NCBI GenBank assembly: GCA_050013255.1
Contig: JBEKFP010000001.1
Location: forward strand, 1 to 64,000
Length of the DNA stretch: 64,000 nucleotides
Reading direction: 5' to 3'
Source of the DNA: Candidatus Bathyarchaeia archaeon
GTDB lineage: Archaea; Thermoproteota; Bathyarchaeia; 40CM-2-53-6
In this document: in pieces, positions 25,800 through 27,260 of the stretch
Layout: each line of letters begins with the position of its first letter
Position numbering within the stretch: position 1 is the stretch's first letter
The notes under the pieces: model-generated
What the model saw: the letters and a program-made list of their open reading frames with translations, nothing else
What the model was told of the DNA's origin: nothing
Database searches by the model: none
Made by a program: the position numbers and the translations under genes

Positions 25800-25904
25800 T
25801 GGTGGGCCCGGAGGGATTCGAACCCTCGACCAGCAGGTTCCTCAGTTACGCATATGAGCTTCGACCTTCTTTCTGTCGCTCTAGCCTAGCTGAGCTACGG
25901 GCCC
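25800..25904 (-). tRNA. tRNA with CAU anticodon, probably tRNA-Ile2; introns at 30/31 (13 nt) and 37/38 (14 nt)
   Basis: Spliced 78-nt cloverleaf GGGCCCGTAGCTCAGCTAGGCTAGAGCGACAGGCTCATAACCTGCTGGTCGAGGGTTCGAATCCCTCCGGGCCCACCA; splice helices CGAC/GTCG and CTCA/TGAG. Confidence 0.9.
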
Positions 25905-26114: not shown

Positions 26115-26402
26115 ATGGCAAAACAGGACGACTTGGGGTTTAATCCGCTTGAGGAACTTGACCGTAGCGAAGCTCGCATCGTAGTCAGGCTGGAGTTCAG
26201 GCGATTTAGAAAACCTGTAACACTCATTCAGGGGCTTCCGGGCTCTCGTTTAGAGGAAATTGCCCGCGAATTGAAGCGGCGGTTCGGGGCGGGGGGAACC
26301 ACTAAGGGTGGAGAGGTTCTACTTCAGGGAGACCACCGAGTCCACATCAAAGAGGAACTTGTCAAGTTAGGATTCCCCGTCGATCATATCGACATGATCT
26401 AA
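26115..26402 (+). CDS. sui1: translation initiation factor aIF-1 (SUI1)
   Basis: RRFRKPVTLIQG, LKRRFGAGGT, LQGDHR. Confidence 0.92.
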   Translation: MAKQDDLGFNPLEELDRSEARIVVRLEFRRFRKPVTLIQGLPGSRLEEIARELKRRFGAGGTTKGGEVLLQGDHRVHIKEELVKLGFPVDHIDMI

Positions 26403-26409
26403 CGAGTTG

Positions 26410-26560
26410 TGGTGCTCCGGGCGGGATTTTCTGCGATTGGACCATCGCTTTCGAACCCGCGTCGCTGACTCTCTCCACAAGCTCGAGAGGCCAGCATACT
26501 CTCGGCGTCACACGCCTTGACCGGGCTATATTCGGTAGCTTAATCAGCTTCTACCGGAGC
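26410..26560 (-). tRNA. tRNA-Glu(CUC) with four introns
   Basis: Removing inserts of 20, 17, 13 and 23 nt gives a 78-nt cloverleaf ending in CCA; each insert forms a strict or relaxed BHB motif. Confidence 0.9.
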
Positions 26561-26603
26561 CCCAGCTGCCCGGAGCACCCCGACTATCGCAACCCAACGG
26601 TAT

Positions 26604-27260
26604 TCAAGCGTTCCGTTTTCGTGCTATCATTACCGCGAATGCGACCACAATCACGGCTATGAGCAAAGTTCCCGCCGCAATGTAGCTCGGGTCTATGATC
26701 AGTGGTTGAGCGACAGACGTTCCGGGATTCGTCTCATGGGTAACGATTGCTTCGTTTGTGGTAGTGGTTCCAACTGAAGTCGTCGCCACAGTGTCCGTTG
26801 TTTGCTGCGTCGTAGCGCTTAATGTGCCAACCTGGATGGCGATGGTGCGCTCCATCGGGGATGCAACCATTCCACCATCTTCGAATAAGTAGACGATGAG
26901 TTCTAGCCTCCACGGTCCATCACTGCTAGGGGCGGTAGCCGCATTCGAAACGCTTGCGGTGACGCTGGGTCTCCAACCTATGTCAAAGGGGCTCGATGAA
27001 AGGATACTCTTTGTTTGAAGGTCTACCAGGTCGACTCTGCCCGTATAGTAACTTCTCCATTGTGCGCACAGAATGAGCATGCTTGTATTAACGGCAATTG
27101 ATTGACCTGGACTTGAAGTGGCTGGATAATCCATGTTCAATTCAGCGACGTTGCAGCGGTCGGCGTAAACTTCGTGAATGGCGATGGATGGCGTTGCCAC
27201 AGTAACAAGCACTAAGAAACAGCAGAAGAGAACTACCTTAGACGGTATTCTGACCTGCAT
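26604..27260 (-). CDS. secreted, C-terminally anchored protein with Thr-rich linker
   Basis: Signal peptide, beta-rich domain, T-rich stretch, TM helix followed by RKR. Confidence 0.75.
   Translation of the reverse strand: MQVRIPSKVVLFCCFLVLVTVATPSIAIHEVYADRCNVAELNMDYPATSSPGQSIAVNTSMLILCAQWRSYYTGRVDLVDLQTKSILSSSPFDIGWRPSVTASVSNAATAPSSDGPWRLELIVYLFEDGGMVASPMERTIAIQVGTLSATTQQTTDTVATTSVGTTTTNEAIVTHETNPGTSVAQPLIIDPSYIAAGTLLIAVIVVAFAVMIARKRNA

Follow-up and report, generated by a model that had tools for sequence, protein, structure and literature searches.

The window analyzed here, a stretch of 64,000 nucleotides, comes from the genome of a Candidatus Bathyarchaeia archaeon (GenBank assembly GCA_050013255.1, contig JBEKFP010000001.1, positions 1 to 64,000 of the forward strand). 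On its minus strand, from position 26560 to 26410, lies a gene for tRNA-Glu with the anticodon CUC. The gene is 151 nt long and consists of five collinear exons interrupted by four introns. In the direction of transcription, its parts are as follows, with sites and positions given in tRNA numbering:

26551–26560, minus strand: exon 1, 10 nt, positions 1–10 (5′ strand of the acceptor stem, U8, A9 and G10)
26531–26550, minus strand: intron 1, 20 nt, site 10/11
26518–26530, minus strand: exon 2, 13 nt, positions 11–20b (5′ strand of the D-stem and the D-loop)
26501–26517, minus strand: intron 2, 17 nt, site 20b/21
26484–26500, minus strand: exon 3, 17 nt, positions 21–37 (3′ strand of the D-stem, 5′ strand of the anticodon stem and the anticodon CUC)
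26471–26483, minus strand: intron 3, 13 nt, canonical site 37/38
26450–26470, minus strand: exon 4, 21 nt, positions 38–59
26427–26449, minus strand: intron 4, 23 nt, site 59/60
26410–26426, minus strand: exon 5, 17 nt, positions 60–76, with an encoded CCA at 26410–26412

The joined exons form a 78-nt sequence that ARAGORN calls tRNA-Glu(ctc) with an encoded CCA. In the spliced product the cloverleaf is restored: the acceptor, D, anticodon and T arms are standard and CUC sits in a 7-nt anticodon loop. In 200 other genomes of the phylum, the joined 78-mer matches uninterrupted genes over its full length with up to 94% identity; the best match, a 78-nt gene of another archaeon, is also called tRNA-Glu(ctc) by ARAGORN. 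Because all five exons are on the same strand, in order and within 151 nt, the gene is neither split nor permuted, and no open reading frame of at least 60 amino acids overlaps it. The original prediction, made from the letters of the window, had described a tRNA-Glu(CUC) gene with four introns at 10/11, 20b/21, 37/38 and 59/60, and every one of its coordinates is right. The helices that it quoted are all present as well (CGGT/ACCG with AGCT/AGCT, CGGT/GCCG, CTCT/GGAG, GCGAT/ATCGC, and TTCG/AGAA with one mismatch), and so are the 3-nt bulges that it assigned to each intron.

All four introns fit the standard bulge-helix-bulge (BHB) frame, in which each bulge has 3 nt and is cut between its second and third base. 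In this frame, which we derived from the canonical 37/38 case and which agrees with the published definition, the four exon bases before the 5′ bulge pair with the four intron bases before the 3′ bulge. The resulting central helix has four of four pairs in introns 1–3 and three of four in intron 4. Intron 1 has the form HBh′: exon bases CGGU (positions 5–8) pair with intron bases ACCG, the inner helix AGCU/AGCU is 4 bp long, and the bulges are AG/a and aa/U11, cut at the stroke. The central helix of intron 2, CGGU/GCCG, includes one G-U pair. Each of its outer helices comprises a single base pair in this genome, which makes intron 2 a relaxed motif of the D-loop; several orthologues have an h′ of 3–6 bp. 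Intron 3 is of the form hBH, pairing CUCU (positions 32–35) with GGAG and using the anticodon stem as its outer helix. Intron 4 is of the form hBHBh′, with the T-stem as outer helix, the inner helix GCGAU/AUCGC and the central helix UUCG/AGAA. An outer helix of at least 2 bp is present in intron 1 (h′, 4 bp), intron 3 (h, 7 bp) and intron 4 (h and h′, 5 bp each).

The unspliced gene is detected neither by ARAGORN, with intron mode on or off, nor by Rfam, at the gathering threshold or at permissive E-value thresholds. That standard finders miss it, and that the genome also contains a UUC isoacceptor, would be expected if the locus were a decaying tRNA pseudogene that has collected insertions, with GAG read by tRNA-Glu(UUC). 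Comparison with orthologues argues against such decay. Among the 25 distinct versions of the gene that we compared, 13 have all four introns; 12 of these belong to the same genus and one to another family of the order. The exons of the 12 differ at three of 78 sites, where we find two transitions that preserve a stem and one purine exchange at position 57. Elsewhere one or more introns are missing, always at the exact border: intron 1 in L018 and L019, intron 2 in L020, intron 3 in L020, L027 and L030, and intron 4 in L014–L017. These precise absences and the full-length match to an uninterrupted gene are two independent reasons to place the gene structure well outside what chance would produce.

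The introns, in contrast to the near-invariant exons, vary in length and sequence among relatives, and the variation follows the splice motifs. Every intron in the 25 orthologues keeps the BHB frame, and the central helix has four of four pairs almost everywhere, including 18 of the 21 variants of intron 4. In the inner helix of intron 1, the third pair is C:G, U:A or G:C among 17 intron variants; pairs 1–5 of the inner helix of intron 4 also occur as several pair types, which are compensatory changes. The intron-2 strand is GCCG or ACCG, both of which pair with U20, and in L007, L012, L013, L016 and L019 an inner helix of 3–6 bp directly abuts the central helix. The near invariance of the exons across at least 12 species, together with the compensatory changes in the intron helices, indicates, at the level of sequence, that the gene is under selection and that its inserts have to be removed. 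A promoter-like box upstream is conserved, and the four-intron gene is the only CUC gene found in the genome: the other match in a blastn search with the spliced product is the UUC gene. A pseudogene is therefore very improbable, and the four-intron tRNA-Glu(CUC) gene is, on this comparative evidence, very likely functional.

Intron 1 raises a structural problem. Its central helix takes bases 5–8, from the 5′ strand of the acceptor stem, so that the intron-1 motif and the acceptor stem are mutually exclusive. Just upstream of the gene, a second copy of this strand is found behind a TATA-like box:

26601–26608, minus strand: TATA-like box CTTGAATA, ending 24 nt before the leader copy
26568–26576, minus strand: leader copy (‘decoy’) GCUCCGGGC, a duplicate of the 5′ strand of the acceptor stem
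26561–26567, minus strand: remainder of the spacer between the leader copy and tRNA position 1

Together with U26577, GCUCCGGGC can form 10 bp with tRNA positions 64–73. The spacer between the end of the 7-nt copy and position 1 is 9 nt here, counting GC at 26568–26569. In all genes with the 10/11 intron it is variable in sequence and 7–11 nt long, and in the CUC genes that have the conserved TATA-like box it is 8–11 nt. Of 18 scored CUC sequences, 16 have TTAAAATA as the box; the variants are CTTGAATA, found here and in L049, and TTTAAATA, found in L043. Whereas the distance from copy to tRNA varies, the gap between the box and the copy stays at 23–24 nt throughout the 18 CUC genes of the genus. 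Because of this fixed gap and the usual spacing of archaeal TATA boxes, the transcript is predicted to start at the leader copy.

We calculated partition functions for 30 genes, folding each of them without a leader, with its native leader, and in versions whose leader had lost the copy or had poly-A in its place. Over the 30 genes, the intron-1 central helix averages a probability of 0.03 in the leaderless form; the native leader raises this to 0.89, and loss or replacement of the copy leaves it at 0.45. For the gene in the window the corresponding values are 0.00, 0.97 and 0.10, and across the leader variants the probability of the true acceptor stem shifts in the opposite direction (approximately 1.0 without a leader). 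Deletion and poly-A served as controls in place of complementing or shuffling the copy, because the complement pairs elsewhere, which makes that control uninformative, and shuffled copies remain GC-rich and are only partly informative. The competition between the intron-1 helix and the acceptor stem, which had been pointed out in the original prediction, is thus real in the folding without a leader. Since the copy raises the probability of the intron-1 helix in the model, the conflict appears to be resolved in cis, and the leader copy probably helps the intron-1 motif to form. The other consequence drawn from the competition, an ordered removal of the introns, finds no support in the folding: the probabilities calculated for the 15 splicing states do not point to any order, because RNAfold favors a shifted register with a 1-nt bulge and gives a probability of about 0 to the central helices of introns 2–4. 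The leader copy, instead of ordered splicing, seems to settle the competition.

The distribution of the copy follows that of the intron. It is present in 29 of 29 tRNA-Glu genes that have the 10/11 intron, a set that draws its CUC genes from two families and its UUC genes from a third lineage, and absent from 9 of 10 tRNA-Glu genes that lack this intron, the exception being within the same genus. A similar pattern is seen within the genome of the window. Six of its 37 recognizable tRNA genes have an intron between 8/9 and 10/11, and in five of the six a 6–7-nt stretch upstream duplicates the gene's own acceptor strand, which differs from gene to gene; among the approximately 31 genes without an early intron no exact copy is found. 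By chance, about 0.07 exact copies would be expected, compared to the 4 that are seen.

These observations bear on whether the copy does anything for the intron. One could accept the four-intron gene as real and regard the leader copy as a passive relic, of a small duplication for example, or as serving another role such as protection of the 3′ end or tuning of RNase P, with the endonuclease capturing the intron-1 motif unaided. A relic would fit a gene that has an early intron and no copy (C1:1244030) and the two relatives, L018 and L019, that have lost intron 1 and retained the copy. It would also fit the finding that, in several species, a leader reduced to the spacer already gives a high probability of the intron-1 helix. 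Substitutions inside the copy are limited to three C-to-U changes among the relatives, weak evidence for pairing. On the other hand, the copy is conserved while the adjoining spacer diverges in sequence and length, and the spacing of the promoter is locked to the copy rather than to the tRNA. A relic also does not readily account for the match of five genes in this genome to five different acceptor sequences, well above the chance expectation, or for the co-occurrence of copy and intron in three lineages and two isoacceptors. We consider a passive copy rather unlikely and favor a helper role.

Since the upstream copy and the true acceptor strand are identical over 7 nt in this gene, the same product would also result if the upstream copy were the true first exon and the stretch from the copy to U8 a fifth intron. 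The equivalent borders, however, provide no BHB frame, as the would-be helices CUCC/CUCC or GCUC/GCUC are not complementary. In other lineages the last base of the upstream copy is C or A, or a U replaces a C within it, which would leave mismatches in the mature acceptor stem, and it is the downstream copy that is invariant and the upstream copy that varies. A fifth intron is hardly credible, and the upstream copy is better regarded as part of a leader. Two further ideas about the leader were tried and rejected. A cut at −1/+1 through a BHB motif formed with the 3′ end does not work because the leader bases in the frame, GCUG, are not complementary to positions 72–75, and a target-site duplication generated by the intron is contradicted by the position of the repeats, which enclose the 9-nt spacer alone and leave the intron outside.

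Based on the helper role, we suggest the following sequence of events. The primary transcript, carrying four BHB introns, would most likely begin with the spare copy of the acceptor strand (26568–26576). This copy would pair with the 3′ strand of the tRNA and free the true 5′ strand, whose bases 5–8 are borrowed by the central helix of intron 1 at the expense of the acceptor stem. Introns 3 and 4 would employ the anticodon stem and the T-stem, respectively, as outer helices. An endonuclease of the alpha-beta type would excise the introns and the ligase RtcB would rejoin the exons. Once intron 1 is removed, the true 5′ strand could replace the copy, and RNase P would then cut off the 17-nt leader. 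Taken as a whole, this account of a four-intron gene spliced by a two-subunit endonuclease and RtcB, with the leader copy as helper, is likely.

Several observations weigh against this account. As to the splice motifs, intron 2 in this genome has no outer helix of at least 2 bp, and the central helix of intron 4 contains a G-A mismatch. The central helices of introns 2–4 have near-zero probability in every splicing state, so that thermodynamics alone gives them no support and binding by protein must be assumed. Metagenome contigs scanned for the junctions that removal of introns 2 and 3 would create gave a single match and no signal of spliced RNA; the match is a 4.4-kb DNA contig from a species that natively lacks both introns. 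For the helper role, the difficulties are the copy kept without intron 1 in L018 and L019, the high helix probability with spacer-only leaders, and C1:1244030, the sole early-intron gene in the genome that lacks a copy. In addition, the related genomes are not independent samples, and the true strand would later have to displace the longer, 9–10 bp helix formed by the copy.

The enzymes that the account calls for have candidate genes in the host. Two EndA paralogues are encoded, at C2:171513-172085 (alpha) and C1:301907-302470 (beta-like). One is a catalytic alpha subunit, closest to the catalytic subunit of A. pernix (E 1.5e-38), with which it shares the aligned Tyr, His and Lys; among known enzymes it comes nearest to the catalytic alpha subunits from Aeropyrum, Sulfurisphaera and Pyrobaculum. 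The second is beta-like: it lacks the His and, judged from its alignment, looks like a structural beta subunit, so that the pair looks like a two-subunit endonuclease of the crenarchaeal type. Enzymes of the alpha-beta type have been linked to relaxed, non-canonical motifs (PMC7714728, PMC4090602), and the broad-specificity endonuclease anticipated in the original prediction would fit this pair. An RtcB ligase is also encoded, and an archaeal RNase P RNA is present (175 bits). We observed that the RtcB gene, at C1:110968-113778 on the minus strand (L063/L064), matches the family model in two pieces, model positions 1–60 and 49–426, which lie approximately 1.4 kb apart within a single open frame of 1039 amino acids. 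This arrangement suggests that the gene contains an intein or another in-frame insertion.

Interruption of tRNA genes is the rule in this 2.46-Mb genome. Its tRNA-Glu set consists of the one CUC gene and one UUC gene (C1:221631-221763, minus strand), which has two introns, at about 20/21 and 37/38, and none at 10/11. Among 36 well-recognized tRNA genes, 35 are longer than 90 nt and a single one, C2:260000-260077, is uninterrupted. Seven or eight tRNA genes (162–229 nt) are longer than the 151-nt Glu gene, and Rfam recovers only 19 tRNA genes genome-wide. Three Asgard genomes have been reported to have 92–95% of their tRNA genes interrupted (2023 preprint); in this respect the Bathyarchaeia genome rivals the most intron-rich Asgard lineages.

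The original prediction had placed its comparison in Thermoproteales; the host belongs to Bathyarchaeia, and 29 of the 30 public records with this gene type are metagenome-assembled genomes (MAGs) of Bathyarchaeota or Bathyarchaeia from soil or peat. The remaining record is labelled a bacterial MAG. It is contig DASQZS010000317.1 (L056), binned as ‘Candidatus Acidoferrum sp.’, and its archaeal tRNA-Glu(CUC) gene, which has three introns, is identical to the one in the Bathyarchaeia genome G010; mis-binning of the contig is probable.

Our literature search on four-intron archaeal tRNAs, tRNA introns in Bathyarchaeia and leader or acceptor-stem helpers found neither this type of gene nor the leader copy described, and no paper that deals with the tRNA introns of Bathyarchaeia. 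A maximum of three introns, as given in the original prediction, is what a 2021 paper gives for archaeal tRNA genes, with Pyrobaculum calidifontis as the richest genome (PMC8450103). That figure has been superseded by an October 2026 preprint, which reports up to five intervening sequences per tRNA gene in Asgard archaea, and within the genome studied here there are longer tRNA genes than this one. The four introns thus exceed the long-quoted three and are not a record. The published list of known intron sites includes 20/21, the class to which the 20b/21 site of intron 2 belongs, 37/38 and 59/60; 10/11 is not on it.

Comparison with described systems helps to define what is unusual. In Thermoproteales, for example in tRNA-Pro(UGG) of Pyrobaculum islandicum, which has introns at 25/26, 37/38 and 56/57 (PMC4090602), one finds the same short, protein-spliced introns with BHB, HBh′ and hBH motifs at canonical and non-canonical sites, 20/21 and 59/60 among them, and the host endonuclease is likewise of the alpha-beta type. 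The differences are four introns instead of three, a mesophilic Bathyarchaeia host from soil or peat, and an intron at 10/11 that takes up the acceptor strand for its motif in the presence of a leader copy. The Asgard genomes resemble this one in that nearly all tRNA genes are interrupted and many D-arm introns, which the 2026 preprint describes as common in Asgard, are missed by annotators. Unlike them, the host belongs to the phylum Thermoproteota, class Bathyarchaeia; for the leader copy that preprint describes no counterpart, as the word ‘leader’ does not occur in it. The trans-spliced split tRNAs of Nanoarchaeum equitans and Caldivirga maquilingensis (PMC4090602) likewise rely on additional complementary RNA, beyond the mature tRNA, to build the structure required by the endonuclease. 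Here, by contrast, everything is in cis on one predicted transcript of 168 nt, and the extra strand mimics an exon strand and lies outside the BHB motif. The nuclear tRNA genes of Cyanidioschyzon merolae (PMC3728597) similarly have several BHB introns per gene, at D-arm and T-loop sites; this organism is a eukaryote, has up to three introns per gene, and removes them in an order established by reverse transcription-PCR. What we describe is ordinary BHB splicing in a lineage for which we found no report of it, with an unusual density of introns and a probable helper element of which we found no description.

These findings have implications for both annotation and evolution. Bathyarchaeia are abundant archaea of soils and sediments, and their tRNA genes can be as fragmented as those of the most extreme Asgard lineages. 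Because ARAGORN and Rfam miss genes such as this one, the tRNA complements of such MAGs will be under-called. The gene is a well-supported case with four introns, beyond the ‘up to three’ quoted for Archaea, and the presence and absence of each intron from species to species is material for studies of intron gain and loss. With the leader copy there is a specific, testable solution to the problem of an intron whose motif conflicts with the acceptor stem, and it points to a role of flanking sequence, beyond the mature tRNA, in determining where introns survive. We lean slightly toward a broader view, in which the copy is a dedicated cis-acting folding helper that co-evolved with introns between 8/9 and 10/11 and is discarded with the leader, as a general rule in intron-rich archaea including Bathyarchaeia. 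If so, this rule would decide where introns can persist near the 5′ ends of tRNAs.

Some features of neighboring and related genes deserve mention. The early-intron gene without a copy, C1:1244030-1244171 on the plus strand, is a class II tRNA gene with a long variable arm and has its intron right after position 9. Its splice motif also consumes acceptor bases, 4–7 in this case, and the only upstream element that pairs with the 3′ end in the minimum free energy fold is a 4-nt GCGG at a distance of 35 nt. Directly upstream of the tRNA-Glu(UUC) gene at C1:221631-221763 lies GCUGCGG, a look-alike of its acceptor strand with one mismatch, which may be due to chance or may be the relic of a lost leader copy. 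In the window itself, approximately 500 nt downstream of the Glu gene, a second interrupted tRNA gene is found at 25800–25904 on the minus strand. It is 105 nt long, has an encoded CCA, scores 47.9 bits with the Rfam tRNA model and contains about 28 nt of extra sequence within the anticodon arm. Single deletions tried by brute force gave no consistent isotype, and the gene therefore probably has two introns. Finally, a block UAGAUCAUGUCGAUAUGAUC with an imperfect inverted repeat inside it lies at 26382–26401 on the minus strand, 9 nt past the CCA of the Glu gene; it is kept in the four closest relatives, L002–L005, despite differences in trailer length, with one base changed in L004 and L005.
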